This document shows, in pieces, positions 178 through 62,502 of a stretch of 64,000 bases of DNA. The notes beneath the pieces were generated by a model. That model ran no database searches. It was not told the DNA's origin and saw nothing but the letters and a program-made list of their open reading frames with translations. Numbering within the stretch: the first letter of the stretch is position 1; every line of letters starts with the position of its first letter. The position numbers were made by a program, and so were the translations under genes. Source of the stretch: Candidatus Multivoradales bacterium (lineage in GTDB: Bacteria; Acidobacteriota; Thermoanaerobaculia; Multivoradales; J023); the NCBI GenBank assembly GCA_965250305.1, contig CBDFNS010000023.1, forward strand, positions 105,346 to 169,345, in the 5' to 3' direction.

Positions 178-1251
178 TGGTGTCTCGGCAGGGCGCCGGT
201 GCGCTCGGTTGCCGTAGGCTCTTTGATTTTGGTCCCGTCGTCCGATGAACCCGATGACGCACTTCCATGGGCCGAGTTCGGTCCGTTGGGTGGCGGGACC
301 AGTTTGTTTCGGGCGGGCCGGGCGATCCCCCCTTGTGGTCCCCGGCCTTGGTGTCAGTGACACCTTGAGGCAACGACGATGTTCGCAGCTGCACCCTCCC
401 GCCGCTGCATCGCTTACTCGGGCTTCGTCACCGGGCCACCCTCCTCCCGGCCCGCCCGGATTTGTCGTCACGCGCGAAACCCCAAAGGCCTACAGACCGG
501 CCTCATCAGGCGCGGCCTCATCAGGTACCGGGCAAATATTGGGGAAGAAACAATGACGGGCTTGCGAGCCTCCGGACCGACGTCTTAAAGGGCTCTGATC
601 GGAGGCCTCGAGCACTTGATGGATGGGCAGATCGGGCGGATTCGGTCGTTCATGAACGTTCGAATCCGCGCGAAATCGGCCACTTCTGGCGTCCGCGCAG
701 GCTTCGCCCGCGCGGTGGGTGATCCCACCGTGCGACGACCAACCGGAGCGCCACGCCGCGCGGCTATCCAGGCTCGAGCCGCAGCGGCTCAACGAACGGC
801 AGGGGCGGCGGGAAGCAGTTCTCGGGGAAGGTGATGGCGATGTCTCCCGCTGCGAGCCGCTCGGCGGCGATGCGGTATTCCGCGAGGCAACGAAGACAAT
901 CAGGCGGCACCTGATCGGCCGGGCACAATGAACCGCCAGCTCACCAGCTCATGAGCGCTGAAGATCGGCATTTCACTGGAGCCATGCGACTTACGGCGTT
1001 GTCATTACCTGAGGCGATCGATCCATGAGACAGGCGCTTGTCGCATAGGCGATTTGGGCAGCGACGGTGCGTTGTGCGCACAGAGGAGGCCTTCATTGAC
1101 ACTGCGATAGCAGCTTGTCTAGGATGATATGGCCTTTGTGTTCAACCGTTTGCGGCTCGCGGGGTCGCGAGTGCTTCTGGATTCGAATGTGGTCAGAGGT
1201 GAGCCGATCGAACGAGAAGAATAGACGCTCAATCTGAGGTTCGCTCTAGAA

Positions 1252-9728: not shown

Positions 9729-10025
9729 ATGTCAAAAGTAACATTACGAATCACACCGAACAGACGTCATCGTTCCGGTAGCGCGGAAGTCCACGAGGCG
9801 CCGGCGGCGATTAGCTTCAATGAGCCAGTTCGGATCCGTCTCGAGGTGCCGGCATCGGCCGTCGAGCCTGTGCGCGACGAGAATGGTGATTTGGTCTACC
9901 GATTTGACGTCGTGCTCGACATGACAGGTGCCTCTGGCAATCCCCTGGATGGGGAGATGACGATCACGGACAAGACGGGTACTCACGCTGACTCCGATGA
10001 TCAGGCCGGACCCAGTGGGCCCTAG
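9729..10025 (+). CDS. small hypothetical protein (about 98 aa) immediately upstream of, and overlapping, the CHAT gene
   Basis: ATG at 9729 preceded by AAGGAG with a 6-nt spacer; no family recognised; lower-GC segment. Confidence 0.5.
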   Translation: MSKVTLRITPNRRHRSGSAEVHEAPAAISFNEPVRIRLEVPASAVEPVRDENGDLVYRFDVVLDMTGASGNPLDGEMTITDKTGTHADSDDQAGPSGP

Positions 10026-14177: not shown

Positions 14178-14249
14178 GGTGGTCCGATTCGTCTGGCGGC
14201 ATATGGTGTCGTACATGAGGAGGCGGTTACCACATCGTTCCGAGGGTCC

Positions 14250-21238: not shown

Positions 21239-24200
21239 CTACCGCGATGTGCCTACGTCCCCCGTTTCGTCGAGGATTGCCAGGCGTTTGCGGGCCAGCT
21301 CGAAGGTCGATACCGCTGCGTAGGGATCATCGTCCGGTTCGTCGATTCTCCGGTAGTAGGCGCGGGCGGTTTCCAGTAGGCCGTAGGTTTCCGCCGTGCG
21401 GCCGAAGACGAACCAGTCGTCGGAAGTGACCTGCTTGTCGGGCCGTAGTGAGATGGCCTGTTGGACAATTCGATTGGCTTCTACGGGGCGATCCATCTGG
21501 GCGTAGGCGGTTGCCAGGGTATGCAGGGTGGCGTCGCTTTGGTAGCCCTCGAGTCCAGCGCCTTTTTGGGCGAGCGTCAAGGCCTGCTCGGGGTCGGTGT
21601 CTTCGAAAAGAAGGAACCAGGCCCACTGGTTGTAGTCGACGGCTTCCCGGTCGCCCGTGGGAATGGCCTTGAAGGCCGCAATGGCATCGGCGAAGGCGCC
21701 ACGTGATTGGGCGAGAAGTGCCTCGCTACGGGCCGTCGCTGGGTCGTTCGGCAGACGTTTCTTTCGCTGCTCGATCAGTGTCTCAGCGGCGCTCCAGCGC
21801 TCGGCTTGCAACAGTGAGAGCAGTTGGCCCTGGAACACCGTTTCGGAGGTTGGATGGGCTTTCAGCATCGTCGATGCGACAGCTTCGAGCGCTTTGCTGT
21901 CGTCGCTGATGAGGGTGGCCTGCAAGATCGCCAACTGGAGCGCTTCCTGGCGGTTGGTGTCGTCCGTGATCTTGGTCAGCGCCGGTTTCAGGATGGCCAA
22001 CGCCGCTTCGGCGTGGGCGGCGTCGGTCATCAGCGTCGCTGCAGCAACCCGCATATCGTCAGCGGACGCCTCGTCCGTGGTCGGCCACAGTCGGGCGAAG
22101 GGATGGAATCCGAACGGGTCCTCGGTCTGGATTCGGGTGATCGCTTGCTCGGCCCAATCGAGCCATGTGGCGGCCGCGGCGAACTCGCCCGTGTCGATCA
22201 GTCGGATGGCCTCGGTGCCGAGACCTGCCAAGAGTCGATCACCGGCGACCATTTTGGGCTCCCCGTTTCGCATGCCGAAGAACGTGGTCCAGGGCTCGGC
22301 TGATGGGTCGAGCGCTGGTGTCATCTGAATGCGGTACCCGGTCTCGTCGTCACCGTCGATCTCATCGGTGGTGAACGACTGCACACCGATGTCGAAGAAA
22401 ACAGGGTCAGGCAATGCGCCGGGATTGATCGCCGGATCGCCGCGTAGCGTTTCGAGCGCGATTTGTAAGCCGACCTCGGTAGCGTCCCAGGCCGTTGCCA
22501 AGCTCTCGGCAACCAAAGGCCGTGAACGCTCGAGATCGATTGGGTGCCCCATGAGTGAGCCCAGCAAGCTTCGGGCGGTAGACTTCGGGTCGGTGAGATC
22601 GACCTCGAGCTCCTCCGAGCGCTTGACGTTGCCGATGACATCGGCTTGGGCGAAGGTCGCAGCCGGATTTTCGGTGCGACTCGCGGCTCGCCGCAGCACC
22701 TCGCCGGATTGCGGGTAGTGACGCGTGATCAAGAGGTGTTGAGCGACTTGCTGGAGCAGCGCGGGTTGGGCTGCTTGGTTGGCCGACATTTGCTCAACCG
22801 CGCGCAGGGCCGCGGGTACACCGTCTTGCACCGCGATCGCGGTTGCGCGCACGATATTGCGTGTGTCGCTGCTCGGAAACGTCTGGTGTGCATCGGCCAG
22901 CTCAGCCCAGTGGTGGTCGTAGAAGAGTGCGGCCAGGAGTTGAGTGTCGTAGGAAGTGTCTTCACTCTCTTTGCGCAGTCGGCGGTAGATTTCGATCGCA
23001 TCACTGAGATCGGCATCAGCCCCGTATCGTGTGCCGGTACTGTCGTGCTCGAAGGCAACGGCCAGCTCCGTTGCGGCTTCTTCATCGTCCGGTGCGAACT
23101 CGGTGGCTTTTGTCAGGCTGGCGATGGCTGCCTCGCGTTGATAACCCGGACCGAATCGGCGTCCGATGTCGTCGTGTTCGAGGGTGTAGCCGTGAAGCAT
23201 GTGGGCGAACATCGATTCGGGCGCCAGTTCCACTGCTCGTGCGGTTTCCGATTGCGCCAGCTCGCCAAAGCCGGCGGCGAGAAGAACCTGGGCGTAGCGG
23301 ACCCGATGGTCGGGCTGCTCGGGTTCAGCATCGATGAGTTTGCGTGCGCCGCTGATCGCATTTTCGATGCGGCCGGCGGCGAGATCCGCCATGATGGTGT
23401 GATCGAACCAAATGGATGGCAACTCGGCCTGGCCGATCTCATGGAGTCCGCTGCGAAAGGCGGTGATCGCCGCCGCATTGAGTCGCCGGGGTCCGGTATC
23501 GAACACCATTTCGACGTGAACCACACCGTCGTCGTCGGCAAAATAGGCCATGGTGAACGAGCCGGTGCCCAATTCCCATGCCCGGTCGGCTGGCAGGTCC
23601 CGCGGCGTCATGCCGCTGGCGGGCCGGATCGTATAGCGGAGCACGGATCGGTAGGGGTCGTACAGCACCAGGTCCGACTCGCGAGGGTCGATTTCTTCGC
23701 CAAGGTCATCGATCAGAGCGCTTGGAAGATCTTCGAACAAGGTGCCAAATCCGAGTACCACGATGGCCTCGCGAAGGTCGCTCACCACCGAGCCGACGCC
23801 CTCGCCCGCCATCCGTAACGTGAAGGGCTGGTCGAGATCGTCGGGCGGCGACCATTCGACGTCGGTGAGCTCAGCGTCGCTGTAGGTGGTGGCGATGTAG
23901 CTGGCCAAGCCCTCGCGGGTAGATTCCGGCGTCCAGTCACTGGTGACCGTCCGCATGCTCTGTTCCGACGATCCGCGATAGACCGTGGTTTCGATCACGG
24001 AGCCATCGCCGTAACTCGTCAATTGGATCTCGCGATGTTCGATAGTGCCGTTGGCGCTCGACGGGGCAACCGGGGTCCGCTCCAACTCGGTGGCGTTCGT
24101 GTGCACGACCAGGGCGTACCGATCCTGATCGGGAAGGGGTAGCTCACCTGCACGCGCGCCAGGGTGAGTTGGGTCGACCCATACGGGTGATGACCCCATG

Positions 24201-25399
24201 ATCTTGACGATCGCGTGATCGAATCGGCCCAAACCCGGCAAGGTTGGGTCGACGTCGACTCCCGGCCCGGTTAGCAGCAAGGCAACGTTTGCTTCGATGC
24301 CCAAGGCGCGCAACATGGCGACCAACAGCGTTGCCTTGTCCTTGCAGTCGCCGTAACTGCGCTCGAGGGTGGTCGAGGGGGCCGCGGGAATGAGACCGAA
24401 AGCGCCGAGCTCGAGACCGGTGTAGCGCACTTGATCATGAAGGTACGCGAGAACACGCGCGATGGTGTCGGCGGTCGATTCGTCTCGACGCTCGAACCCT
24501 TCGAGAAGCTGCGCCGATTCCGCGTCTGCGAGTAGTTGTTCCACAACCTCATGGTAGGCGCGGGCAACGGAGCCCCAGCTCTCCCCGGTGGCGAACCCTA
24601 CGTGTACCCAGCGAGGCTCGTCCGACGGCCGCCCTTCTTCCCACGGGATCTCATCGGTCATCGAGGGGTGGTCCACGTCGAACACCCACACCACCCGGTC
24701 GTCGTGTTCTTCCTTGGTTGGCGCGAGGTCTTCGGTGCCCCGAACCTCGAAGCGAAAGGGGACGCTTTGCGGGACATCAATCGTCAGTCGTTGGCGTAGT
24801 ACCGGCGAGGTTGACTCGATGTTGATGCGCGAGGACAGTCCTGCGTTGAAGTACGGCTTTTCGTCGTGGACGATTTCTTCAGCCACCACCACGGCACCTT
24901 TGACGACACCAGGGAGCGGGCCCTCGAGAACGAGCTCATCCTCGAAGATGGCGTCTCCTTGGTCACCGTTTGGACGCTCACTCAGGGTCTTGGGATCGAG
25001 TCGATACTCTTTGCCCGCAGGGGTCACAATGCGGTAGCGCAGCTCTGGTCGGCTCTGCATCCAGGGCCGGTAAATTCGGTTGGCTACGCTCCAGTCTTCA
25101 ACCCCTTGTGCAGTGTGAAGGTAAATGACGGCGCGGAACAGGCTCGTCTTGCGGCCGGGCTCGTGGAAGGTCTGGATGTACTCACGCCAAAGATAGACGG
25201 CGTCGGCGTCTTCGACATCGGGGGCAGCCTCGGCGGCAGCGGCCAGCAATGTTGTGGAGTCGACGGCGAAAAGGTCGATGTCCGGCCACGGGACGGTCGG
25301 CTTGTCGGCACCTGTGGAATCACCAGCGGCGACCTGAGGGATCCAGATCAGACCGAGTGCCAGGAGACGAAAAAGAAGAGAAAAATAGTGATGCGTCAA
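21239..25399 (-). CDS. large (1386 aa) DUF3857 / transglutaminase-like cysteine-protease-fold / DUF3858 protein with C-terminal TPR repeats, secreted
   Basis: Transglutaminase-like core SYGDCKDKATLLVAMLRALGIEA; signal peptide THHYFSLLFRLLALGLIWIPQVAAG; start assigned to TTG 25399 because a perfect AGGAGA sits 5 nt upstream (tctcct at 25405-25410); the ATG at 25480 lacks an RBS. Confidence 0.8.
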   Translation of the reverse strand: MTHHYFSLLFRLLALGLIWIPQVAAGDSTGADKPTVPWPDIDLFAVDSTTLLAAAAEAAPDVEDADAVYLWREYIQTFHEPGRKTSLFRAVIYLHTAQGVEDWSVANRIYRPWMQSRPELRYRIVTPAGKEYRLDPKTLSERPNGDQGDAIFEDELVLEGPLPGVVKGAVVVAEEIVHDEKPYFNAGLSSRINIESTSPVLRQRLTIDVPQSVPFRFEVRGTEDLAPTKEEHDDRVVWVFDVDHPSMTDEIPWEEGRPSDEPRWVHVGFATGESWGSVARAYHEVVEQLLADAESAQLLEGFERRDESTADTIARVLAYLHDQVRYTGLELGAFGLIPAAPSTTLERSYGDCKDKATLLVAMLRALGIEANVALLLTGPGVDVDPTLPGLGRFDHAIVKIMGSSPVWVDPTHPGARAGELPLPDQDRYALVVHTNATELERTPVAPSSANGTIEHREIQLTSYGDGSVIETTVYRGSSEQSMRTVTSDWTPESTREGLASYIATTYSDAELTDVEWSPPDDLDQPFTLRMAGEGVGSVVSDLREAIVVLGFGTLFEDLPSALIDDLGEEIDPRESDLVLYDPYRSVLRYTIRPASGMTPRDLPADRAWELGTGSFTMAYFADDDGVVHVEMVFDTGPRRLNAAAITAFRSGLHEIGQAELPSIWFDHTIMADLAAGRIENAISGARKLIDAEPEQPDHRVRYAQVLLAAGFGELAQSETARAVELAPESMFAHMLHGYTLEHDDIGRRFGPGYQREAAIASLTKATEFAPDDEEAATELAVAFEHDSTGTRYGADADLSDAIEIYRRLRKESEDTSYDTQLLAALFYDHHWAELADAHQTFPSSDTRNIVRATAIAVQDGVPAALRAVEQMSANQAAQPALLQQVAQHLLITRHYPQSGEVLRRAASRTENPAATFAQADVIGNVKRSEELEVDLTDPKSTARSLLGSLMGHPIDLERSRPLVAESLATAWDATEVGLQIALETLRGDPAINPGALPDPVFFDIGVQSFTTDEIDGDDETGYRIQMTPALDPSAEPWTTFFGMRNGEPKMVAGDRLLAGLGTEAIRLIDTGEFAAAATWLDWAEQAITRIQTEDPFGFHPFARLWPTTDEASADDMRVAAATLMTDAAHAEAALAILKPALTKITDDTNRQEALQLAILQATLISDDSKALEAVASTMLKAHPTSETVFQGQLLSLLQAERWSAAETLIEQRKKRLPNDPATARSEALLAQSRGAFADAIAAFKAIPTGDREAVDYNQWAWFLLFEDTDPEQALTLAQKGAGLEGYQSDATLHTLATAYAQMDRPVEANRIVQQAISLRPDKQVTSDDWFVFGRTAETYGLLETARAYYRRIDEPDDDPYAAVSTFELARKRLAILDETGDVGTSR

Positions 25400-25545
25400 A
25401 ATGATCTCCTGAGGATTTCGGGAAGAGAAAATCGCCTCGATTATGGTGGAATAGCGTGCTTCTGTCACGATCGGGCGCATAGAGGGTCACGAATCAGGTT
25501 GGCAAAGAGCGTCGCGTTCGGGTCTTCTCGATACTCACCGGTACA

Positions 25546-44148: not shown

Positions 44149-44421
44149 ATGCCAAATATGACAAGATTGTTACAGTTTCGGAACATCGAAAAAGAACCTA
44201 GAGAGGGCCAGGCCGAATCGGTGGCTGCGTTTGCGGCCAGCACTTCAACCTGTGCAATGGGGGAGCACGTCATGGTGGCTGAGGAATCGGATCGCATCTT
44301 TGCCATGGCCATGGCGCTGGTAGGCCTTCGCTGGCTGGGCATGACCATTTCAAACCCGGATGTGGTCGCGAAATCCTATCCTGATTCTTGGCACAATCTG
44401 CAGCAACTTCTCGTCGTATGA
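44149..44421 (+). pseudogene. decayed partial duplicate of aroA (leader + first 4 codons fused in-frame to two short 3' segments, 90-aa ORF)
   Basis: 44139-44285 is about 85% identical to 40061-40200. It continues with the aroA segment ESDRIFAMA (as at 41206-41233) and then MAMALVGLR...LLVV* (as at 41370-41481). The internal junction lies at a GCCATGGCC direct repeat. Confidence 0.6.
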
Positions 44422-47400
44422 CCAGTGTGCGGGAGGTCGCCCTGGAGCATTCGGCGCTGGTCGCCGAACCCGGTGGGGTGCCACTTGCGCAAGCACGATT
44501 GACGGATCAACAGCGGTTGGCGGCCGTGCTCCAGGCAGCGGCGGTGCGCGCTCACCTCGATCATGGTGGCCTGACGCTACGGGACGGATGGGGATGTGGT
44601 CGTTGGCATGCCGATGGGCGGCTCAGCGTTCAGCGCGTCGTGCCTGGTCCCGCCAACGAGTACGCCCAGGTGGCCCTAAGCCGCCTGATTCGGTTGCTGT
44701 TTCGCACCGAGATGGTTGCCGGGCGCGGAATGGCTCGAAGGGCCGCCCGCAGGCTGCTCGAGCGATGGGGTCAGTTGGTAGCGGCCGAACCCGCGGACCG
44801 GGCGGTTGCCGACGTCCTGGAGCTGGCGCCTTTTCTTTGGCAGCCTGCATTTGCCGTGGCACGGAAGGGCTTGGCGGCGCGACACGGTGCGTCCGGATTG
44901 TGGGTGGCTGGGCCGGGACGAAGCCGGCGCCGGTTGCTGGTGCCGGCCCATGATTTGGGCTCCTTGCAGACGTTGCTCGCCTCGGATGACGCCCATTCGG
45001 TTTGGTCCGGCGTGGGTGAGCCTGCAGAAGATCCCCATGACCTCCTGGCCCGCGGGCGTTACCAACAGGCACTGATTGCTTGGGAGCAGCGACCTCCGCG
45101 TGGCACGCGGTCGCGACTGGCGTGCGGGGAGGCAGCCATTGCAATGGGGCGGTATGTACACGCGCTCGAATCCCTGCGTGAGGTCCGTGGTGTGCGCGCT
45201 CGGATCCTGCGTGCACGCGCGCAGGTGGGTCTCAATGAGCTCAAGGCCGCGCGCGCGACCCTCGAACGCCTCGGAAGAGCGAACCTGACCGGGCCTGAAA
45301 CGGTTCAGGCCGCGGAAGTTGCCGTGCGGGTTGCAGGCAACCTAGGACGTCCCCAAGCGGCCGATCCGTGGGTCGCCCGTGCACGGGCGTCCGCTCGCGG
45401 TCCGTGGGCTTTGCGCGCGCGCGTCTTGGCCGCGCTGGCGGCCTGGGATCAGCGCGATTTCGTCGCCTCGAATGTCCATCTGGAAGCTTCACGAAAGGCG
45501 TCCGACGAGCCCAATCTGGCTTGGCGTTGGCATCATGCTCGGGCGCTGTGCGCCCAGAGCGAACAAAACGGTATCGAGGTCATCGAGCATGAGGCGCTCG
45601 CCCTGCGCCATGAGCGGCGCAGGCTGAGTCGCGCCTGGGCTGGGCGACTGTGGAACGGTATCGGCCACGGTCGGGTCATGATCGACGATCTTCCGGGTGC
45701 CGAGCGTGCGTTTCGGCATGCATACCACCTTCTGCGTCGTTGTGACGGACCCGCTGCACTGGCGCTTGCAGCGCCCAATCTGGCCGAGACCCAGATGCGC
45801 CGTGGTCGTTTGAGTGGGGTCGCTGGCATCCTCGAGACCTCGGTGGCCAACAATCGCAACGCTGGCAATGTCCGGGCCCTGTTCTTCGATCTCGTGCTGT
45901 GGATGCGATTTGAACTCGCGCATGGTCGTATGGCCGCAGCGATTGGTTGGTACGACGAGGTCCGGACATTGCTCGATAGCCGACCCGATGCCGGCGATGC
46001 CTCCATACCCGCCGTCATGATGGCCCGCGCCCAGGGGTGGTTGGGGCGTGCCGCGTCCGCGCGTTCTTTTCTTGACTCGGGTGGCACAAAGGCATTGGTC
46101 GAACTCGAGCCGGAGGAGCGGCCCGCGGTCCTGGCCTTGGCAGGACAGATGGATGAAAGTGAGCGTTGGGCTCACGGAACCCCCTGGGCGGCATTATGGA
46201 AAGCGCTTGCAGTGGGCCGGGCGCCGTCGCCGCGTGTCTGGGAGCTGCTCGAAAGTCTGGAGCCCTATCGTGCTGCACGGCTGGTCTTCGACTGCGAGGC
46301 CGCTCGTCCCGGAACCGTACCGGCGCATCGGATCGTACGTGCGGTTGCGGACCTGCGGGCCGCCGGTGCTGAGGGTTTGGCTGAAAGACTCGAAGGACGC
46401 TCCTTGAGTCCTTGGTTGGCAATCGAACAGTTTTTGGGCCGGGCGCCCTCAGACGGATTGGAGGAAATGGGTGCCCTGTTAGAACGAACGGGTCATTCCG
46501 GCGCCGAGATCATTTTTGTGCCGACTGGAGATCGTGAGCAAGGTCCACGAATTGTCGTTGCAGGTGTGGGTGGTCCGAAGAGCCTTGTTGCAACCGTTGC
46601 CGAAGGTGAGATTCGTCTGCGTGCGAAGCGGCTTGATCCGATGCTACGTGGATTGTTTTCGATCATTCGTCGGCACCTCGAACCAAGGGCCCGACCCGTG
46701 GCGAAGCAGGTGCCTGTTACATCAGAGTCAGGGATTCTCGGTGAAAGTGAAGTGCTCGCCCAGGCACTGAACCGGCTTCGGCGACTGGCGGTGCTCGAGC
46801 TTCCGATGCTAATTCTGGGTGAGAGTGGTACCGGGAAAGAGCTTGCAGCGCGCTTGGTACATCGAAGCAGTCCTCGGGCAGGCGAGCTGTTCGTTGCGGT
46901 GAACTGTGCTGCGCTTCCCGAAAACTTAATTTTGTCGGAGCTTTTTGGTCACGTTCGAGGTGCGTTTACTGGGGCTGATCGCGACCGGGCCGGATTCTTC
47001 GAGTCGGCGCGTGGTGGTAGCGTTTTTCTTGATGAGATCGGCGACCTGCCACTCTACGCTCAAGGGATGTTACTTCGCGTCTTGCAAGAGAGCGAAATAC
47101 GTCGGGTGGGTGAAAGTCACAGCCGTCGGGTTGATGTTCGGATCGTGGCGGCGACCCACCGGGATCTTTCCGCGATGGTCAAGGAAGGGTCGTTTCGCGA
47201 AGACCTGCTCTTTCGGCTAAAAGTTGCCTCTGTCGAGTTGCCACCACTGCGTGATCGCGGTGATGATGTATTTCTGTTGGCTGAACACTTCCTGCGTCGT
47301 CAGGCAGGTGGCCGTACGCTTCGATTGAGCAAGTCGGCACGACAGCGCCTTGGCCAGCATACGTGGCCAGGGAACGTGAGAGAGTTGGTCAATGTATTGG

Positions 47401-47642
47401 CCGTCGCGGCGGCGTTGAGTGATGACGAAGTTGTTTCCGCGGCCAGTCTCGACCTTCCGGCCGCTGCGAACCGGTCATCGGAAGGGTTCTATCATCAAGA
47501 AGTGGAATCCTTGCGGCGGCGCTTGATCGAACGAGCGCTCGATTGGACGGGGGGCAATCGGGCGGCCGCCGCACGCCGACTCGGACTCAGTCGGCAGGCG
47601 CTCTCCTACCTTGTTCGACAGTTGGGTATTTCGCGGCCATAG
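44418..47642 (+). CDS. sigma-54-dependent transcriptional activator (AAA+ sigma-54 interaction domain + Fis-type HTH) with a roughly 750-aa N-terminal helical/TPR-like domain
   Basis: GESGTGKE Walker A, GAFTGA sigma-54 contact motif, ESE..RVG arginine finger region, C-terminal AAARRLGLSRQALSYLVRQLGI HTH; start ATG 44418 overlaps the relic stop (ATGA). Confidence 0.85.
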   Translation: MTSVREVALEHSALVAEPGGVPLAQARLTDQQRLAAVLQAAAVRAHLDHGGLTLRDGWGCGRWHADGRLSVQRVVPGPANEYAQVALSRLIRLLFRTEMVAGRGMARRAARRLLERWGQLVAAEPADRAVADVLELAPFLWQPAFAVARKGLAARHGASGLWVAGPGRSRRRLLVPAHDLGSLQTLLASDDAHSVWSGVGEPAEDPHDLLARGRYQQALIAWEQRPPRGTRSRLACGEAAIAMGRYVHALESLREVRGVRARILRARAQVGLNELKAARATLERLGRANLTGPETVQAAEVAVRVAGNLGRPQAADPWVARARASARGPWALRARVLAALAAWDQRDFVASNVHLEASRKASDEPNLAWRWHHARALCAQSEQNGIEVIEHEALALRHERRRLSRAWAGRLWNGIGHGRVMIDDLPGAERAFRHAYHLLRRCDGPAALALAAPNLAETQMRRGRLSGVAGILETSVANNRNAGNVRALFFDLVLWMRFELAHGRMAAAIGWYDEVRTLLDSRPDAGDASIPAVMMARAQGWLGRAASARSFLDSGGTKALVELEPEERPAVLALAGQMDESERWAHGTPWAALWKALAVGRAPSPRVWELLESLEPYRAARLVFDCEAARPGTVPAHRIVRAVADLRAAGAEGLAERLEGRSLSPWLAIEQFLGRAPSDGLEEMGALLERTGHSGAEIIFVPTGDREQGPRIVVAGVGGPKSLVATVAEGEIRLRAKRLDPMLRGLFSIIRRHLEPRARPVAKQVPVTSESGILGESEVLAQALNRLRRLAVLELPMLILGESGTGKELAARLVHRSSPRAGELFVAVNCAALPENLILSELFGHVRGAFTGADRDRAGFFESARGGSVFLDEIGDLPLYAQGMLLRVLQESEIRRVGESHSRRVDVRIVAATHRDLSAMVKEGSFREDLLFRLKVASVELPPLRDRGDDVFLLAEHFLRRQAGGRTLRLSKSARQRLGQHTWPGNVRELVNVLAVAAALSDDEVVSAASLDLPAAANRSSEGFYHQEVESLRRRLIERALDWTGGNRAAAARRLGLSRQALSYLVRQLGISRP

Positions 47643-47840: not shown

Positions 47841-47885
47841 TAGCCTTTCGAACTTTGTACATTGAGCAGTGACGGAGGTATTTTC

Positions 47886-48608
47886 ATGGCGAGAAAGAAG
47901 TCAACGAAGCGCGCGGCTGGTCCCAAGGCGCTTCTCACACTGACGGAAGTATCCAAGCGGACCGGCATCTCGATGCCGACTCTGCAGCGATACAAGAAGC
48001 TCTTCCAGGCACGGATTCCATCGGTGGGAAGTGGTCGATCACAGCGATACAAGCCTGAGGCGCTCGACATCTTCCGCCAGCTGAAGGAAGAGAACATCAA
48101 GAAACGCGGACGGCCGCGCAAGATCGCGTCAGCCACGCCGGCGCCCAAACCAAGACGGGTTGTTCGTGCGAAGAAGGTCACCGCACCTGCGAGCCCAAAG
48201 AAGAAGGCGCCGGTCAAGCGCGGTGGCTTGCTGACGCTGACGGAGATTGGTTCGCGGACCGGGATCTCGTATCCAACGCTCCTCCGGTATGTGAAGAATC
48301 ACATCGAACAGATACCTCACGTTGGTGAGGGCCGGACGCGGCGATACCGGGCAACGGCCGTGAAGGTTTTCGAGAAGCTTCGCGCCAAGAGTCCACGGGG
48401 ACGCGCGGCGGCCACGCCCAAACGTAAGCCAGGCCGGCCTCCGGGCCGCCCGCCCGCCACGGGTGCGAAACCCGTTGCCGCGACAAGAGATGCTGGGCTT
48501 GGCGCGCGAGTGAGGTCACTCGAAGCCTCCCATGCTCGGTTGATCAAGGCCATCGAGCGTTTGGAGAAGGCCGTCAAGCAGCCGGTGCGATTGGTTGTGA
48601 AAAGCTAG
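47886..48608 (+). CDS. DNA-binding protein with two tandem MerR/excisionase-like HTH modules separated and followed by AT-hook / Lys-Pro-rich linkers
   Basis: Internal repeat LLTLTEVSKRTGISMPTLQRYKK.../LLTLTEIGSRTGISYPTLLRYVK...; AT-hooks KKRGRPRK and KRKPGRPPGRPP; GGAGG RBS 7 nt upstream of ATG 47886. Confidence 0.6.
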   Translation: MARKKSTKRAAGPKALLTLTEVSKRTGISMPTLQRYKKLFQARIPSVGSGRSQRYKPEALDIFRQLKEENIKKRGRPRKIASATPAPKPRRVVRAKKVTAPASPKKKAPVKRGGLLTLTEIGSRTGISYPTLLRYVKNHIEQIPHVGEGRTRRYRATAVKVFEKLRAKSPRGRAAATPKRKPGRPPGRPPATGAKPVAATRDAGLGARVRSLEASHARLIKAIERLEKAVKQPVRLVVKS

Positions 48609-48957: not shown

Positions 48958-49959
48958 TTAGAAGCTCCGCCTCGGCGGGGCTTTTGATGCATCGAGATGG
49001 TCCCAGCCCCGATCCGGTAAGGTTTCGATCATGGTGCCCTTGCGCACCTGAATCTTGCGGTTCTCGCTCAGGGCGCCGATCCGGTGACACTTCCACTCCG
49101 ATGGTGGTTGGATCTCGGGCGGTAGTGAGAATAACAGAACGTAATCCTCGCCGCCAAAGAGCTGTTGTGATTGTAGATCCATTGCCAAGGCCGTCGCGAG
49201 CGCTTGGCCACCCTTCGAGGTCGGCAACGCTGCTACATCGATTTGGGCGCCTACTCTGCTGGCGCGGCAAAGGCGATGAAGGTCTCTTGCCAAGCCGTCG
49301 GAGAGGTCGATGGCTGCGCCGGAAGATGTACAGCTCGACAGCCATCGGCCAAGGCCAAGTTGGGGCGATGGCAACAACTGTCGCCGTACCGCACTTCGTG
49401 CCGCTTGGGTCAGAGATCGTGGATCCTCGAAGGAGCCTGGCAGGCTCACCCTACTGCCCTCCAGCGCGGCGCCTCGGCGCAGCAATTGGAGACCCAACGC
49501 TGCTTCACCCAGGGTGCCGCCGAGCCAGAGGTGGTGTCCAGGCTGCCCACCCTTCCGCCGAAGCCATCGGCCATCGGGACGTCGGCCGAGAAGTGTTAGG
49601 CTGGCGCTGAAAGTCGGCTGGGTGGCGAGGTCACCGCCCGCGATGCGCAGGTCGTGGTGGCGAGCGTCTTTTGCGATGGCGCGGAAGAACCGTCGATGAT
49701 CGTAGTAGTCCGGTGCCGCGAGGGCAAGAAATCCGACGGTCGGTTCAGCGCCCATCGCCGCAAGGTCGCTGAGGTTGACAGCCAACAGCCGGCGGGCGGC
49801 GATGGCGGGATCCACATCCAAAGGTAAGTGGACGCCCTCGATTTGTTGGTCAACCGTGACCGCCCAAGCTTCGGATTCGAGCACAGCGGCATCGTCGCCG
49901 ATAGCCGCACCTCCTGGAAGGGATCCCCGCAGCCACCGTACGAGGGTGTTCTCGTCCAT
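48958..49959 (-). CDS. thiL: thiamine-monophosphate kinase
   Basis: AIGDDAAVL ... LAVNLSDLAAMGAEP AIR-synthase-related fold motifs. Confidence 0.8.
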   Translation of the reverse strand: MDENTLVRWLRGSLPGGAAIGDDAAVLESEAWAVTVDQQIEGVHLPLDVDPAIAARRLLAVNLSDLAAMGAEPTVGFLALAAPDYYDHRRFFRAIAKDARHHDLRIAGGDLATQPTFSASLTLLGRRPDGRWLRRKGGQPGHHLWLGGTLGEAALGLQLLRRGAALEGSRVSLPGSFEDPRSLTQAARSAVRRQLLPSPQLGLGRWLSSCTSSGAAIDLSDGLARDLHRLCRASRVGAQIDVAALPTSKGGQALATALAMDLQSQQLFGGEDYVLLFSLPPEIQPPSEWKCHRIGALSENRKIQVRKGTMIETLPDRGWDHLDASKAPPRRSF

Positions 49960-49973
49960 CGGGACACCGCGGG

Positions 49974-52310
49974 CTAGCGCAACGCCAGCTCAACCACTTC
50001 GTCCATATGCTCGACCGGACGGAAGGTGAGCCTGCGTCGCAAGCCGGAAGGGAGCTCAGGGAGATCACGCTCGTTGCGGCTGGGGATAATGACGGTGGTG
50101 ATACCCGCGGTCAGCGCAGCGAGGGCTTTCTCCTTCAGGCCGCCAATGGGCAACACCGCTCCGCGGAGGGTGATCTCGCCGGTCATGGCAAGGGTGTGAT
50201 TGATGGGGCGATCGGTTACCGCGGAGAGCACAGCGGTCGCGATGGTGATGCCCGCCGACGGACCGTCCTTGGGGACGGCCCCGGCCGGGGCATGAATATG
50301 AAAGTCGCGTTCGTTGAAGATGGCGGATTCAAGACCGTTTCGTTCCGCAAAGCCGCGGGCATAGGTCATGGCAGCCTGCGCCGACTCCTGCATGACATCA
50401 CCCAGCTTGCCAGTCAAGCGCAATTTTCCTTTGCCCAAGACGGTCGACACTTCGATTATCATCAACTCGCCGCCATGGGCCGTCCAGGCTAGACCGGTTG
50501 CGACCCCAACGCGATCCTGATCCAGCAGTCCCTCGTCCTCGTGTTGGGCAACCCCGAGTAGTTTGACGACTTGTTTGGGGCCGACGACCCTTCGCTTGGG
50601 TCCCTTTTCGACCACGGTGATGGCCGTCTTACGGCACAGCGCCGCGATCGATCGCTCGAGGTTGCGGAGCCCGCTTTCGCGGGTGTAGCCACGGATAAGG
50701 GTCTTGAGGCCGCGCTCGGTCAGGTGCAGATGCTCGTCCTCGAGGCCGTGTGCGCCGCGCTGTTTGGGAAGCAGATGGCGTCGAGCGATCGCGCGCTTCT
50801 CATCTTCCGTATAGCCACTCAGCCGGAGGACCTCCATGCGATCGAGAAATGCCGGCTGAATCGGATCGAGCTGGTTGGCCGTGGTGATGAAAAGGACCTG
50901 CGAAAGATCGTATGGAAGGCCGAGGTAATGGTCGCGGAAGCTGACGTTCTGTTCTGGGTCGAGCACTTCGAGCAAGGCAGAGGAAGGGTCGCCACGGTAG
51001 TCAGCGCCGATCTTGTCGATCTCGTCGAGCATGAATACTGGGTTGCTCGAGCCGGCTTGGTGAATGCCCTGAATGATCCGTCCGGGCATGGCGCCGACGT
51101 ACGTCCGACGGTGGCCACGAATCTCGGCCTCGTCCCGTACGCCGCCGAGTGAGACGCGCACAAACGCTCGGCCGAGCGCGCGGGCGATCGACCGTCCGAG
51201 TGACGTCTTGCCGACGCCAGGTGGGCCCACGAAACAAAGAATGGGGGCGCGGGCGTCGGACTTGAGCTGGCGCACCGCCAACAGCTCGATCATGCGCTGC
51301 TTGATGTTCTTGAGGCCGTAGTGATCTGCATCGAGCACGGCGCGGGCGCGGGCGAGGTCGAGGTCGTCTTCGCTCAGATTGCCCCAGGGGAGTCCGATCA
51401 GCCAGTCGAGAAACGTACGGATGACCGTCGTCTCGGCGCTGTCCGGGTGGCTGCGCTCGAGGCGTTTGATCTGCTTCTCGAGTTCCTCACAGGCTTCTTC
51501 CGGCAACTTCTTCTCGGTTGCTTTGCGCCGGTACTCTTCGACCTCGGTTTGCAGCTCGTCGCCTTCGCCGAGTTCGTCTTGGATGGTTCGCAGCTGCTGG
51601 CGGAGAAAATACTCGCGCTGCGACCGATCGAGCTCGGTTCGTGCCTGGTTGGCGATGTCCTGTTGAAGACTCAGGACATGCACTTCGCGTTCCAGGTGGT
51701 CGCAAACCGCGGTGAGGCGTGCGATCGGGTCACCCATTTCGAGCAACGTCTGCGCTTCATCGACTTCGAGATCGAGGTTGCTTGCCGCCAGGTCAGCCAG
51801 ACGGCCCGGATCCTCGAGATTGGCGGCGATCACCACCACTTCTGGTGAGATGGTGCGTCCGAGATGGACCGCACGCTCGAGCCGGTCGACAACCGTTCGG
51901 GCAAGTGCCTCGAGCTCGTCGGTACTGGGGGGTGTCGGCAGCGTGGGGATCGGTGACACGTTCGCTTCAAGAAAGGGCTCGGTTTGGCCGATATGATCCA
52001 CTCGAATCCGAGTTAGCCCTTGGACCAAGATTCGGGTCCGACCATCGGGAAGCTTGAGCATCCGCATGATGGACGCTGCGATGCCGACTTCGAAGAGATC
52101 CTTGGGCCCCGGGTCGTCAACATCCGGATTACGCTGGCCCACCAGCGCCACCATCCGCTCTTCGGCCAGCGCGTGATCGATGGCAGCGGTTCCGACGTCG
52201 GGTCCCACCGAGAGCGGCGTAATGGCGAACGGAAAGATCACCGCATCGCGTAACGGCAAGACGGGAAGAATGTCGGGGAGGATCAGGTCTTCGAGCGCAG
52301 GATCATTCAT
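49974..52310 (-). CDS. lon: ATP-dependent protease Lon (endopeptidase La)
   Basis: LON N-domain, AAA+ (GPPGVGKTS, Walker B FMLDEIDK), catalytic Ser in PKDGPSAGI; start ATG 52310 (MNDPALEDL...) avoids overlap with nrdR. Confidence 0.9.
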   Translation of the reverse strand: MNDPALEDLILPDILPVLPLRDAVIFPFAITPLSVGPDVGTAAIDHALAEERMVALVGQRNPDVDDPGPKDLFEVGIAASIMRMLKLPDGRTRILVQGLTRIRVDHIGQTEPFLEANVSPIPTLPTPPSTDELEALARTVVDRLERAVHLGRTISPEVVVIAANLEDPGRLADLAASNLDLEVDEAQTLLEMGDPIARLTAVCDHLEREVHVLSLQQDIANQARTELDRSQREYFLRQQLRTIQDELGEGDELQTEVEEYRRKATEKKLPEEACEELEKQIKRLERSHPDSAETTVIRTFLDWLIGLPWGNLSEDDLDLARARAVLDADHYGLKNIKQRMIELLAVRQLKSDARAPILCFVGPPGVGKTSLGRSIARALGRAFVRVSLGGVRDEAEIRGHRRTYVGAMPGRIIQGIHQAGSSNPVFMLDEIDKIGADYRGDPSSALLEVLDPEQNVSFRDHYLGLPYDLSQVLFITTANQLDPIQPAFLDRMEVLRLSGYTEDEKRAIARRHLLPKQRGAHGLEDEHLHLTERGLKTLIRGYTRESGLRNLERSIAALCRKTAITVVEKGPKRRVVGPKQVVKLLGVAQHEDEGLLDQDRVGVATGLAWTAHGGELMIIEVSTVLGKGKLRLTGKLGDVMQESAQAAMTYARGFAERNGLESAIFNERDFHIHAPAGAVPKDGPSAGITIATAVLSAVTDRPINHTLAMTGEITLRGAVLPIGGLKEKALAALTAGITTVIIPSRNERDLPELPSGLRRRLTFRPVEHMDEVVELALR

Positions 52311-52356
52311 CGATCGATTGTCCGTAATCGGCACCAGCACAGGGCCGGCACCGCGC

Positions 52357-52830
52357 TCAAGTGTCGTCGCCCGATTCGGGCTCGGCCAAGAGGCTCTGTA
52401 CTTCTTCGACAAATGCGCCGAGATCTTCGAACCGCCGATACACCGAAGCGAAGCGTACGTAGGCCACCGGGTCGAGCTCGCGCAAGCGGTCCATGATCAG
52501 ATTGCCGATCTCACGGGTTGAGATTTCCCGCTCTTCCTTCTGGTGCAACCGCCGTTCGATGCCGCCCACCAGATCTTCGAGTGTCTTGAGCGGAATGGGT
52601 CGCTTCTCACAGGCCCGAAGAACGCCACCCAGGAGCTTGGCGTGATCGAATTCTTCCCGTCGGCCATTCGCCTTGACTACCATATAGGGGATGCTCTCGA
52701 TCTGCTCGTAGGATGTGAACCTGCGTTTGCAGTCGAGGCATTCTCGTCGCCGACGGATCGTGGCGCCTTCACGGCTTTCACGAGAATCGACGACACGATC
52801 CCGGTTGACCGAACAGAACGGGCATTTCAT
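52357..52830 (-). CDS. nrdR: transcriptional repressor NrdR
   Basis: MKCPFCS...CLDC zinc ribbon + ATP-cone. Confidence 0.9.
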   Translation of the reverse strand: MKCPFCSVNRDRVVDSRESREGATIRRRRECLDCKRRFTSYEQIESIPYMVVKANGRREEFDHAKLLGGVLRACEKRPIPLKTLEDLVGGIERRLHQKEEREISTREIGNLIMDRLRELDPVAYVRFASVYRRFEDLGAFVEEVQSLLAEPESGDDT

Positions 52831-52848: not shown

Positions 52849-54126
52849 CTAAGGCTTTCCGGAGCCTTCGAGCGCAATCTCGAGATGGAGCAGGATTTGC
52901 CGCAACGCGTCGGCGTTGTCGATGTCGACGATCAACTCGTGCGCGCGATCGAGAAGCTGATGGTTGGCGTCCTCGGCAGTCAACGACAAGACAAGTCGCT
53001 GGGTACGAGCTAGATCTTGCGGGCTGAACCCGACGCGCAGCTCGCGGCTGATCTTGGCAATCCCGCTGGTGGCAGGCACCGGCACGCGCGCTGTCGCTGG
53101 CTTCCGGCGCATGGTTTGCTCACGGATCTTTTCCAACTCCGCAAGCGCGTCGAGTCCGGAAGAGCGTCGGGGCCGCGCGGGACGTGGCGCGACGGGCTTT
53201 GGTTTGGACTCACGGTTCGGTGGTGTTTCTGCCTCCGCTTGCTCGGGGTTGAAACTCGGCGTTGGCTTTGATGGGCTTGCAACAGTTTCCGGGGGCGCAG
53301 CCGCAGGTTCGGGCGACTTGGTCTCCTTCGTTGGCCTGTCGGCGGGTGGGGTCTTCGCCGGGCTCTGACCGTTGGCCTCGTCCGGTGGGGTCTTGGCCTG
53401 TTTGACCTCGTTCGGCGGCGGCGTCTCGGTCGCTTTGGTAGCCGGTTTGGGTGCCGCCGACCTGGCACTGGCCGCACGATCGCCGCGAAGCGCCATGGAC
53501 TGGCTCCGTGGACCCATCGGACCTTCGGGGCGGCCGCGGGTCAGGCGCTTCTTCAACGCCATCAGGGTGAGTTTAGAGATGAGCTTGAGGGTCTCGAAGA
53601 CACCGGTGCCCGTAATCGCGGAACTCTTCGCCGACGCCCACTTGCGGGTGTTGAGCGCTTGCTCGAGCTCCTCGACCGTACAAATACCCGGCAGGTCTCG
53701 TTTGTTGTACTGAAGGACCAGTGGCACGGTGTCCAGGGAAAGACCGATTTCTGCCAGGTTGTCCTCGAGGTTCTGGAACGAGTCGATGTTCGCTTGCAGC
53801 ATGGGACGCTGCGAATCCGCGACGAACACCACACCGTCGACACCCTTGAGCACTAGCTTGCGGGTGGTGTTGTAGAACACCTGGCCCGGCACCGTATAGA
53901 GCTGAATTCTGGTGCTGAAGCCCGCGATCGTTCCGACATCGATCGGCAAGAGGTCGAAGAAGAGCGTACGGTCGGTCTCGGTGGCGAGCGAGACCATTTC
54001 TCCTCGAGACTCGTTGGCGGTGTGCTCGAAGATGTACTGAAGATTGGTGGTCTTCCCGCACAGCCCAGGTCCGTAGTAGACGACCTTGGCCGCCATTTGC
54101 ATGGTGCTGTAGTTGAAGAAGACCAT
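52849..54126 (-). CDS. MglA-like Ras-family small GTPase fused to a 230-aa low-complexity and globular C-terminal extension
   Basis: First 195 aa align residue-for-residue with M. xanthus MglA (MVFFNYS.. vs MSFINYS..; GPGLCGKTTNLQYI; TVPGQ; YNKRD); followed by a Pro/Ala/Lys/Thr-rich linker and a roughly 90-aa conserved-looking tail. Confidence 0.8.
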   Translation of the reverse strand: MVFFNYSTMQMAAKVVYYGPGLCGKTTNLQYIFEHTANESRGEMVSLATETDRTLFFDLLPIDVGTIAGFSTRIQLYTVPGQVFYNTTRKLVLKGVDGVVFVADSQRPMLQANIDSFQNLEDNLAEIGLSLDTVPLVLQYNKRDLPGICTVEELEQALNTRKWASAKSSAITGTGVFETLKLISKLTLMALKKRLTRGRPEGPMGPRSQSMALRGDRAASARSAAPKPATKATETPPPNEVKQAKTPPDEANGQSPAKTPPADRPTKETKSPEPAAAPPETVASPSKPTPSFNPEQAEAETPPNRESKPKPVAPRPARPRRSSGLDALAELEKIREQTMRRKPATARVPVPATSGIAKISRELRVGFSPQDLARTQRLVLSLTAEDANHQLLDRAHELIVDIDNADALRQILLHLEIALEGSGKP

Positions 54127-54523
54127 CGGTTCCCGCGTGCGCGCCTGGTCGGGGAGGGGTCGGGAAGCATAGCATTGGCTCTTGGGGTGGTCAAGAAATG
54201 GTGTGTGTTTTCCAACGCCACTCGCCCAGCAGGCTGGGCCGCATAACCTCTGGTGTTGTTGGGTTTAGGAGTGGCCGCGCCCAAACGTGGTCCAAGAGCG
54301 GAGATGACCTGGTCGTCGCTTGTGTGTCGGCGTTCGAACGCCCCGAGAAATCGCGTCGCCCGCGCCATCACAACGGGGTAGAATGGGCTCGGCTGGCGAT
54401 TCCCGCCGGCTGCTGCACGGGGTCTGCAGGCGACGGGGGGACGTCACCTGTCGGTGCTCGGGTCGTCAGGGAGCCTGGCACCCTGGGGGCCGTAATGACG
54501 TAGCGTGTCGATCGGAGAGCGAA

Positions 54524-55600
54524 GTGGGTTCACGAATTTGCGGCACGGCGGCCTCCACCTTCGAGGCACTCGGTACACGGGATCGAGAGATCCTGACCGA
54601 CGTGATCCAAACCTATGTCACCAGCGGGCGTCCGGTAAGTTCGCGGGCGGTTTCCAAGCACCGACGGCACAAGCTCTCGGCAGCCACCATCCGCAATGTC
54701 ATGTCGGATCTGGAGGAGGCGGGACTGCTGTTGCAGCCCCACACCTCGGCTGGCCGTGTGCCCACGGAAGCGGCCTACCGGCTCTATGTCGAATGCTTGA
54801 TGGAACAGCAGTGTCTTTCGGTTGAAGAGCGTCGCTACATCGAAGAGAACCTACGGCAAGCCGGTAGTGACGGCGATGGCTTGATGACCGCCGCCAGTGA
54901 GCTGCTCTCCGAGTTGTCGCACCAAGTAGGGGTGGTGCTCAAGCCGGCGGTCGAGGAAACCGTTTTGAAGGCGATCGACTTCGTTCTCTTGAGCGAGAAA
55001 CGGGTCCTGTGCGTCGTGGTGTCAACGGCCGCCTTTATCGATAACGTGGTGATCGAATCGGATGAGTTGCTGACACGCGAAGATCTGCAGCGCATCAGCA
55101 ACTACATGAACGATAACTTCGTGGGTTTGACCCTGCCGGCGATTCGAGAACGGCTCTTGGGTCTGATGGCACGGGAGCGATCTGATGTGGACCAACAATT
55201 GGCGCGCACCATCGATCTTGCCCGCAAGGCCGTATCGCGAACCGAAACGACCTCGGTCTTGGTGCGCGGTGCTCGCGGCCTTCTCGACCAGCCCGAGCTT
55301 TCGGACGTCAACCGTGTCCAGCGCATGCTGGACACCTTTGCCGACAAGGCCCGGATGGTCAGCCTGCTCAACGAGTGCTTGACCAATGACGGTGTCCGTG
55401 TCTTCATTGGTGCCGACAGCGAGCTGACGTCTGAGCTGGAATTTAGTTTGGTCGCGACCTGTTACGGTATCGAGCGCCATACCCTGGGGACCGTTGGGAT
55501 TCTGGGGCCATCACGTATGGAGTACGCGCGGATCGTATCGCTCGTTCATTTTCTTGGACACACCTTGAGCGATACGCTCGCGGTCACCACCAAAGCCTAG
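54524..55600 (+). CDS. hrcA: heat-inducible transcription repressor HrcA
   Basis: N-terminal winged HTH (..REILTDVIQTYVTSGRPVSSRAV..) and HrcA C-terminal domain; GTG start 54524 with GGAGAG 4 nt upstream; the longer ORF-track N-terminus is unlikely. Confidence 0.8.
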   Translation: MGSRICGTAASTFEALGTRDREILTDVIQTYVTSGRPVSSRAVSKHRRHKLSAATIRNVMSDLEEAGLLLQPHTSAGRVPTEAAYRLYVECLMEQQCLSVEERRYIEENLRQAGSDGDGLMTAASELLSELSHQVGVVLKPAVEETVLKAIDFVLLSEKRVLCVVVSTAAFIDNVVIESDELLTREDLQRISNYMNDNFVGLTLPAIRERLLGLMARERSDVDQQLARTIDLARKAVSRTETTSVLVRGARGLLDQPELSDVNRVQRMLDTFADKARMVSLLNECLTNDGVRVFIGADSELTSELEFSLVATCYGIERHTLGTVGILGPSRMEYARIVSLVHFLGHTLSDTLAVTTKA

Positions 55601-61633: not shown

Positions 61634-62502
61634 TCAAGCTGTGTTTTCGTGTCTGATCAGACTCTTGTCCCTGACGGCGAAAAGTGCGCGGTTCTCGGCT
61701 CGTCGCACTTGATCCACGGCCTTGCCGAGGTGCATGGCAACGTGGAACTTGTCGAATGCGATCTTCTCGTTGGCGTCGGGAAGAGCGGCTAAAGTGTCCG
61801 ATATGTACGGTCCCCACATGTCCATGGCGACGCTCTCGATCTGACCCAATTCGCCTTCGCTGAAGCTGTCGTAGTAGGCGCCAAGGGCTCCCTTCTTGTG
61901 GCCATCGGTGACGTATTGGACGCATCCGGTCTCCAGATCCGCGACCACCGTCACGTATTCATGCCGCTTCTGGAACGACGTCTCGTCAACGCCTATCCGC
62001 CGAGGCACTTTCAAATCACGACGTGCAAGCCCACGCCGGACCGCACGCTCCATCACCCCACTCACCTGGTCCCAAGTGACGTCGAGCTGCCGCGCCACGG
62101 CTGAGATCGTCGCTTCCTGGAGCCAGTCGATGATCAACGCTTCAAAAGCGCAGTGAAGCCCGAACCTGGATCCGACCACGGAACGCTCATCGTCTTGACC
62201 CCGTGCTCCGGGCAACGAACCCGTGGGACATCGGCGACCAGAATCGTCTTGTACTGGCAGGTCGGGAGGTGCCGCCACCGGCGCCAACGGCTGTCGTACC
62301 GACTGCTCGCCTCTCCACATTCAGGGCACGACAAAGCTTGCTCGCGCCCATGCTCGACAAAAACCTCCACCTCGCCATCACCAAGCCGGAGGGATACGTC
62401 CGTCACCTTCCAAGGCGCTGAAACGCCAAGGATCTGCCCATATAGGTCGGTATCTCGCATTCACCGAGCCTACACCGACCCACCATCTCTCCTGAAGAGC
62501 CA
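61634..62502 (-). mobile_element. ISL3-family insertion sequence remnant: left inverted repeat + frameshifted, C-terminally truncated transposase
   Basis: Transposase N-terminus with a CPECG zinc finger (62134-62460) continues in another frame (61634-62320; ..VDETSFQKRHEYVTVVADLETG..) and stops short of a full ISL3 transposase. On the minus strand the element begins GGCTCTTCAGG at 62502, matching the ISL3 terminal repeat. The right end is missing (abuts parA). Confidence 0.7.

Follow-up and report, generated by a model that had tools for sequence, protein, structure and literature searches.

A Group-1 MglA GTPase with a conserved C-terminal module in Acidobacteriota

MglA is the model Ras-like polarity switch of bacteria. 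To our knowledge, nearly all that has been learned about it comes from single-domain proteins accompanied by MglB and by RomR/RomX in Myxococcus, Thermus and Bdellovibrio. Here we describe a long MglA, encoded by a single open reading frame (ORF) of 425 codons at 52849–54126 on the minus strand of a 64-kb stretch of DNA, termed the window in what follows, from a Candidatus Multivoradales bacterium (assembly GCA_965250305.1, contig CBDFNS010000023.1, positions 105,346 to 169,345). It is a previously undescribed multidomain variant of MglA, with a new C-terminal domain that we find only on MglA.

Several described systems frame the comparison. Group 1 of the MglA family of small GTPases is defined by a TVPGQ motif and an intrinsic arginine finger (PMC4316618). 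A companion mglB gene within four genes is typical of this group, not universal, and orphans are known (PMC4316618). In Myxococcus xanthus the D/E-rich C-terminal helix of MglB binds a pocket on MglA and promotes nucleotide exchange (Baranwal et al. 2019, PMC6785124). This pocket is built from K181 and K185 of helix alpha-5 together with L64 and I67 of the beta2-beta3 region, and a Glu-rich helix of RomR probably uses it too (PMC6785124). The same authors put forward a criterion for further helices of this kind, namely a predicted helix with two to four Asp/Glu residues on a flexible extension (Baranwal et al. 2019, PMC6785124). The MglA-related GTPase SofG docks on patches of the bactofilin BacP (PMC4085708).

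The literature that we searched contains no description of an extended MglA, nor of MglA in the acidobacterial classes treated below. The 2014 survey of prokaryotic small GTPases by Wuichet & Sogaard-Andersen left out sequences longer than 240 amino acids (aa), and its acidobacterial entries are 194–196 aa long (PMC4316618); because of this size limit the long MglA went uncatalogued.

A conventional G domain in one long gene

The complete ORF (425 aa; 52849–54126, minus strand) opens with an MglA G domain (aa 1–195; 53542–54126, minus strand). Residues 1–193 align without gaps to M. xanthus MglA (MXAN_1925; PDB 6h17, 5ymx, 6hjh) with an E-value of ∼7e-75 in phmmer, and 118 of the 193 positions (61%) are identical. 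Identity is 16/17 in the P-loop, 12/17 in switch I and 14/18 in switch II. MglA of Thermus thermophilus follows at E=8e-63, and the next solved relatives are Arl/Arf proteins at E ∼1e-3. The fold tells the same story. Foldseek was run on an AlphaFold2 model built from 91 homologues, and its top 14 hits are all MglA (TM 0.81–0.87); Arf/Ras proteins come only after a gap, at E ∼1e-9. For the long MglA Pfam gives only a weak Arf match, and no match in its C-terminal 230 residues.

All the expected motifs are in place: the P-loop GPGLCGKTT (G1), R53-T54 (G2), T78-VPGQ82 (G3) and N141-K-R-D144 (G4), the last within QYNKRD at aa 139–144. Both hallmarks of Group 1 are present and invariant in the family, with T78-V-P-G-Q82 having Thr in place of the usual Asp and retaining the catalytic Gln, and with the intrinsic arginine finger R53 standing beside the G2 threonine T54. 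Residues G19, G21, K25, T26, R53, T54, T78, G81, Q82, N141, K142 and D144 are invariant in the 91 homologues, as are the whole strings GPGLCGKT (19–26; pattern GxxxxGK[ST]) and NKRD (141–144; pattern [NT]KxD). The N-terminus, MVFFNYSTMQM, is nearly invariant among long MglAs, and its residue 1 pairs with that of M. xanthus MglA. The surfaces of the switch and interswitch regions, on which regulators and effectors act, are likewise retained. By motifs, sequence and fold the G domain is a genuine Group-1 MglA; an initial annotation of the window, made from the sequence alone, had rightly called it MglA from its TVPGQ and YNKRD, the former at aa 78–82. It keeps every residue for GTP binding and hydrolysis, with the catalytic residues unchanged in all 91 homologues, and from these residues it should be competent as a nucleotide switch.

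It resembles the MglAs of M. xanthus and T. thermophilus in its 61% identity to the former, in TVPGQ, R53, Q82 and NKxD, in fold, and in the allosteric pocket described below. It differs from them in being 425 aa long instead of ∼195, in its conserved C-terminal extension of 230 aa, and in having a block of housekeeping genes, not mglB, for a neighbour. With its extra conserved module it also lies well outside the 150–240 aa that served the 2014 survey as the size criterion for single-domain proteins.

The extension belongs to the gene. Among 5.8 billion proteins searched, the best 120 matches comprise one public sequence (P0001) identical to the window protein and 119 others. All of these best 120 homologues share the same layout, at lengths of 346–739 aa (median 457). 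The G domains of the best homologues are mostly 71–90% identical to that of the window, and their last ∼100 residues align well. Within the window the G domain and the C-terminal module carry a coding signature in the same frame, with a GC fraction of 0.81 at third (GC3) and 0.37 at second (GC2) codon positions in the G domain, and of 0.75 (GC3) and 0.43 (GC2) in the module. The linker between them is without codon-position signal, all three positions being at ∼0.69. The long mglA is one real gene and not a frameshift artefact: the layout of the homologues and the shared coding frame bear out the GTPase with a long C-terminal extension that had been read from the sequence, and exclude a missed frameshift.

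The C-terminal module and its distribution

The tail begins with a disordered, hypervariable linker rich in Pro, Ala, Lys, Thr and Glu (aa 196–317; 53176–53541, minus strand). Counted through to residue 322 it is ∼125 aa long, with 23% Pro and 16% Ala, and AlphaFold2 predicts it to be disordered, at a predicted local distance difference test score (pLDDT) of 40–48. Linkers in the family range from 49 to 438 aa, with medians of 27% Pro and 24% Ala. Tandem repeats were sought in the window linker and none were found, and we rejected them as an origin of the variability. At the end of the linker lies a polybasic patch (aa 318–322, RPRRS in the window; 53161–53175, minus strand), where K and R dominate family columns 318–321.

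There follows a conserved amphipathic acidic helix, L-D-A-L-A-E-L-E-K-I-R-E-Q-T-M (aa 325–339; 53110–53154, minus strand). None of 91 sequences varies at D326, E330, L331, E332 or R335, and L328, L331 and L/I334 form the hydrophobic face of the helix. The family pattern, G-[FLVI]-D-[AV]-L-x-E-L-E-K-[LI]-R, comes directly after the K/R-rich columns 318–322. Helical structure is predicted for residues 327–339, at pLDDT 60–72 in the full-length model and at 63–64 in the isolated module, with disordered segments on both flanks. A short variable spacer then leads to the terminal domain.

The terminal domain (aa 354–420; 52867–53067, minus strand) is a beta-rich, four-stranded unit of 67 aa, predicted in the order b1, short helix, b2, b3, b4, with pLDDT 80–89 when modelled alone and 85–92 in the full-length AlphaFold2 model. 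Positions N354, G355, E358, R374, R377, E385, D386, V400, L412, L413, L415, I417 and L419 are near-invariant in the family; the acidic helix is better conserved than this domain. It belongs to no described family. Comparison with PDB folds gave no match (best E=1.3), and searches of the C-terminal module against Pfam and against PDB sequence profiles gave neither a family nor a match. The best PDB profile match, not significant, is a protocadherin (6vfr). In a single homologue, P0111, the module matches Pfam PIN_9 (E=3e-6), as it does in none of the 30 other members scanned.

The tail is thus a module of fixed plan, specific to MglA and made of three parts, held on a hypervariable tether. The initial annotation had given a Pro/Ala-rich disordered linker of 140 aa and a globular end of ∼90 aa. 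The linker stands in composition and disorder and is shorter, at ∼125 aa; there is a folded part at the end, which resolves into the helix at 325–339 and the 67-aa domain at 354–420.

A profile of the C-terminal module found 215 matches among 1.84 billion (1.84e9) representative proteins, and every match from an intact gene carries a P-loop and TVPGQ, i.e. an N-terminal MglA domain. Three apparent stand-alone genes for linker and module were checked, and all proved to be fragments or the product of a sequencing-error stop. Four giant repeat proteins (P0163, P0194, P0235 and P0259; 1558–3569 aa) match the profile 5–16 times each, probably by chance resemblance. We judged them spurious as relatives since they consist of beta-strand repeats and only profile positions ∼47–92 match, although these matches might point to a pair of Ig/cadherin-like strands within the module.

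To place the family we searched for the helix pattern in a single genome of each GTDB species, which yielded 67 loci. All 67 come from metagenome-assembled genomes of Acidobacteriota, one of them under the older label ‘Deltaproteobacteria’; most are labelled Thermoanaerobaculia, Holophagales/Holophagae or ‘Ca. Multivoradales’. Complete or near-complete genomes with the gene include OZ375331.1 (12.18 Mb), OY970373.1, OY969112.1, OY969426.1 and CBDFLE010000006.1. The genome of the window was rightly called non-myxobacterial. The long MglA, far from being the peculiarity of one genome, forms a family that extends across the lineage and whose gene order is strongly conserved. Distant members, with G domains 58–75% identical to that of the window, keep the helix motif and the terminal domain. 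A divergent subfamily (P0198, P0203, P0243, P0246, P0247, P0249, P0257 and locus L071) has ‘VKVRSxxDIL.ELEKLRK’ before a diverged terminal domain. The mglA of L071 also adjoins hrcA-grpE, with genes for SLT/LysM, ComM and M23 peptidase proteins downstream instead of the usual ones.

We detected no mglB in the 64-kb window, nor any within 10 kb at the 67 loci, so that the absence of an adjacent mglB, claimed from the window, holds at the related loci as well, and the long-mglA loci lack the coupling within four genes that typifies Group 1. The probe was M. xanthus MglB, validated by its 100% identity to PDB 6h5b_B. An hmmsearch with a profile of Myxococcus and Thermus MglB against 10,840 six-frame ORFs of at least 50 aa from the window and the 67 loci gave a best E-value of 1.8, and tblastn with M. 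xanthus MglB against the window and related loci found no relative. Among the 45 predicted genes of the window, the 35 scanned with Pfam include no Robl_LC7, RomR-like, type IV pilus or gliding genes; the remaining ten were named from ORF translations and synteny only.

What the tail may do

We lean, on balance and by a little, towards the reading that, within one acidobacterial lineage, a Group-1 MglA switch acquired a ‘tether-and-dock’ module at its C-terminus. The terminal beta domain, perhaps with the helix, would self-associate or bind a fixed partner or scaffold, and so would fix MglA to a site or scaffold, while the disordered spacer would let the G domain reach its regulators and effectors. 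The strands of the terminal domain have alternating hydrophobic residues and the domain offers one six-residue helix only, so that by itself it probably cannot bury its hydrophobic face and would need a partner surface, which might come from a further copy of the domain, from the conserved helix or from a different protein. This probable need for pairing makes a unit of self-association or docking the most likely role for the domain. The output, by analogy, would probably be the usual one of MglA, in which polar machinery, type IV pili for example, is positioned in a GTP-dependent way.

FtsZ is a GTPase with a variable linker and a conserved C-terminal docking peptide, and Ras/Rho proteins have a hypervariable region with a polybasic anchor. 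The long MglA would share with these the order of a GTPase, a disordered variable spacer and then a short conserved docking element, an analogy without homology. It departs from them in that its docking element would be a helix plus a folded domain of 67 aa, with no lipid anchor.

Several points weigh against this reading. At two near-invariant family positions the module of the window has other residues, S354 for N and K358 for E, and it is 43–47% identical to its nearest relatives, against up to 90% for the G domain. The helix is predicted with moderate confidence and AlphaFold2 does not pack it confidently against anything. The neighbourhood is one of housekeeping genes (nrdR, lon, thiL, hrcA-grpE-dnaK) without an evident partner gene. 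For the cellular output we rely on other phyla; and, while the G domain is conventional, the function of the tail, docking and oligomerisation included, is what we infer.

The tail might instead act on its own G domain, with the tethered acidic helix folding back into the allosteric pocket and tuning the beta-screw and nucleotide exchange. We think this unlikely but worth weighing. Such a switch would be partly self-contained, may not need MglB, and would be compatible with a docking beta domain. The tethered helix of MglB offers a precedent (PMC6785124), and the receiving pocket is conserved. Across 91 long MglAs K181 is found in 91/91, K185 in 85/91 (R in the other six), V64 in 90/91 and I67 in 90/91, position 64 being V/I and position 67 I/V in the family. 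The helix of the long MglA agrees with the criterion of Baranwal et al., with D326, E330 and E332 invariant and disordered segments on its flanks, and it has a hydrophobic face. With these pocket residues conserved, and with three invariant acidic residues on the tail helix, it could act in cis. It is also more strongly conserved than the beta domain, persists in subfamilies with G domains of only 58–70% identity, and occurs at 67/67 loci without mglB within 10 kb.

The likeness to the MglB and RomR helices extends to a short helix, several invariant acidic residues and a flexible Pro-rich tether. The helix of the long MglA differs in lying in cis, in following a polybasic patch and in being followed by a beta domain, and its binding is hypothetical. 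It contains K333 and the invariant R335, which, with the patch before it, leaves it far less acidic than the MglB helix, and hhalign against the MglB tail detects no similarity (probability 0.5%). The helix gains nothing in pLDDT when the rest of the protein is modelled with the module, and docking is therefore not indicated. Conservation of the pocket would be explained just as well by an unlinked MglB or RomR; our search covered the loci, and an MglB encoded elsewhere in these genomes would weaken the case for action in cis. The fullest version, an autonomous polarity switch with the helix in cis in the MglB/RomR pocket, the beta domain dimerising or anchoring, and no MglB needed at all, is more doubtful still.

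A paralogue of the SofG type, to which the initial annotation likened the long MglA apart from its tail, would be a second, specialised MglA-like GTPase on a bactofilin scaffold, beside a canonical MglA/MglB pair encoded elsewhere. Like SofG, the long MglA is a Group-1 type GTPase that is longer than MglA and uncoupled from mglB, and docking of SofG on BacP patches (PMC4085708) would suit a docking tail, which makes a scaffold plausible. The G domain, though, is 61% identical to MglA itself and has all its hallmarks, the tail is without relatives outside the long-MglA family among the 1.84e9 representatives, and no bactofilin gene is present among the Pfam-scanned genes of the window. SofG is said to have been described by Bulyha et al. 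in 2013 with an N-terminal extension before its G domain; the long MglA has none, its residue 1 being residue 1 of MglA. In a comparison with SofG made by description only, the tail also differs in composition, in having a conserved folded domain and in its lack of a bactofilin context. The likeness is not supported, and we regard a paralogue of this type as very improbable.

Equally improbable is a fused substitute for MglB, in which the C-terminal module would be a GTPase-activating protein (GAP) or Roadblock equivalent activating hydrolysis in cis. The lack of a nearby mglB, the tight evolutionary coupling of the module to MglA and the conserved charged residues R374, R377, E385 and D386 would fit. 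Against it, Robl_LC7 is matched by Pfam in 0/31 members scanned, the module has no match among PDB folds, and MglA already has its own arginine finger and glutamine. Aligned to MglB with hhalign, the module reached a probability of 0.5%, on which we rejected it as a cryptic Roadblock. The predicted b-a-b-b-b order spans 67 aa, whereas solved MglB cores, at ∼130–136 aa, are nearly twice that size. The topology of the Roadblock fold is also different from this order.

That mglA and a small downstream gene were fused through a frameshift, introduced in sequencing or assembly, within a GC-rich, stop-poor linker, as the linker's want of codon-position signal and the alternative frames open over much of it might suggest, is effectively refuted, since over 100 independent homologues, drawn from different assemblies, are single ORFs in spite of linkers of 49–438 aa, the G domain and the module share one frame, and the module is never a real separate gene (the apparent cases being contig-edge fragments or one stop, in a contig of 0.97x coverage).

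Genomic setting and significance

At the loci with enough flank, hrcA, grpE and dnaK run one way and mglA, nrdR, lon and a thiL-like gene run the other, followed in conserved order by a gene with two helix-turn-helix (HTH) domains and a large sigma-54 activator. The window agrees, and its neighbours nrdR/lon on the minus strand and hrcA on the opposite one had been correctly named. Here 18 nt separate the mglA stop codon from the ATG of nrdR (52357–52830, minus strand). Then come, by synteny, the lon protease gene (49974–52412, minus strand), which probably starts further downstream than the listed TTG, and the thiL-like, AIR-synthase-related gene (48958–49959, minus strand), the last co-oriented member of the block. 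No terminator-like site was found on the mglA strand at the mglA-nrdR junction. On a complete chromosome of 12.18 Mb with the same order (L069), the mglA-nrdR gap is 10 nt, and nrdR/lon and lon/thiL each overlap by 4 nt. A candidate sigma-70-like promoter, TTGACC-17-TATGCT with TG (54166–54194, minus strand), is a match to consensus only, ∼40 nt upstream of the mglA start. From these features mglA is probably co-transcribed with nrdR-lon-thiL from its own promoter.

On the other side, hrcA and mglA stand 890 bp or more apart in 39 of 46 related loci. In both of the two loci checked the gap is filled by a DUF2520/Rossmann-like gene co-oriented with mglA (L001, 7626–8729, plus strand; L023, 8002–8838, plus strand). 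The window is without this gene, and its gap (roughly 54127–54560) measures ∼250–430 bp depending on the true start of hrcA. The hrcA ORF as listed (54320–55600, plus strand) begins at a TTG ∼80 codons before the HrcA homology, which starts near ‘FEALGTRDREIL’ at ∼54560, and translation probably begins much further on. At L071 hrcA is called at 654 aa, unusually long.

The operator CIRCE (TTAGCACTC-N9-GAGTGCTAA, at most 3 mismatches) stands beside hrcA in 17 of the 46 related loci, ∼1 kb from mglA and usually past the intervening DUF2520 gene. None occurs anywhere in the window at the same threshold, and its hrcA operon may be differently regulated or have a diverged operator. Control of mglA by HrcA through CIRCE was considered and rejected, as the element lies beside hrcA and ∼1 kb from mglA in relatives and is absent from the window.

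The sigma-54 activator (1084 aa; 44388–47642, plus strand) has an N-terminal region of ∼780 aa without a strong Pfam match, bearing a faint TPR signal. Adjoining it is the gene for a 248-aa protein with two HTH domains, MerR_1 and HTH_17 (47862–48608, plus strand). Most related loci have these two genes in synteny with the mglA block. L069 has a T2SSE-family ATPase gene (PilB/PilT/GspE type; 35–1213, minus strand) ∼7–8 kb from its long mglA, past dnaJ-prmA; at that place the window has a carboxypeptidase gene and a ParA-like gene.

Elsewhere in the window, the gene at 7778–9265 (minus strand) encodes a 495-aa protein with a receiver domain (aa 4–112), a DUF4388/PATAN domain (aa 127–226) and ∼270 C-terminal residues without a Pfam match. 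Pfam agrees with the earlier description of this protein, which had been linked to the GTPase as a hint of a Ras-like polarity module. In other phyla mglA sometimes has a gene for a PATAN protein close by (PMC4316618); in the window the two genes are 45 kb apart, and no linkage between them was found. A 945-aa protein (9997–12834, plus strand) has a C-terminal CHAT (caspase-like) domain, a long N-terminal region without a family and a C-terminal hydrophobic segment. Next to it, a 461-aa ORF (12831–14216, minus strand) has good coding statistics and no Pfam family; its apparent signal peptide and beta-rich region suggest a protein that is possibly of the outer membrane. A 1413-aa protein (21239–25480, minus strand) combines DUF3857, a transglutaminase core and C-terminal TPR-like repeats. 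Near the window end, a truncated ISL3-family transposase (HTH_Tnp_ISL3 and the first half of DDE_Tnp_ISL3; 61634–62320, minus strand), with a lower coding score around it, is the remnant of a mobile element.

The carriers of the long MglA that we found are known solely as metagenome-assembled genomes, and their proteins are currently annotated ‘MglA’, ‘SRP receptor beta subunit’ or ‘hypothetical’; the sequence signature given here enables their annotation as one family. The long MglA supplies a test case for how MglA is localised and regulated without a neighbouring MglB. If the full form of regulation in cis were true, doubtful as we hold it to be, the MglA cycle of these Acidobacteriota would proceed with no Roadblock GAP or guanine nucleotide exchange factor, and the long MglA would be the first autoregulated Ras-like GTPase in bacteria.

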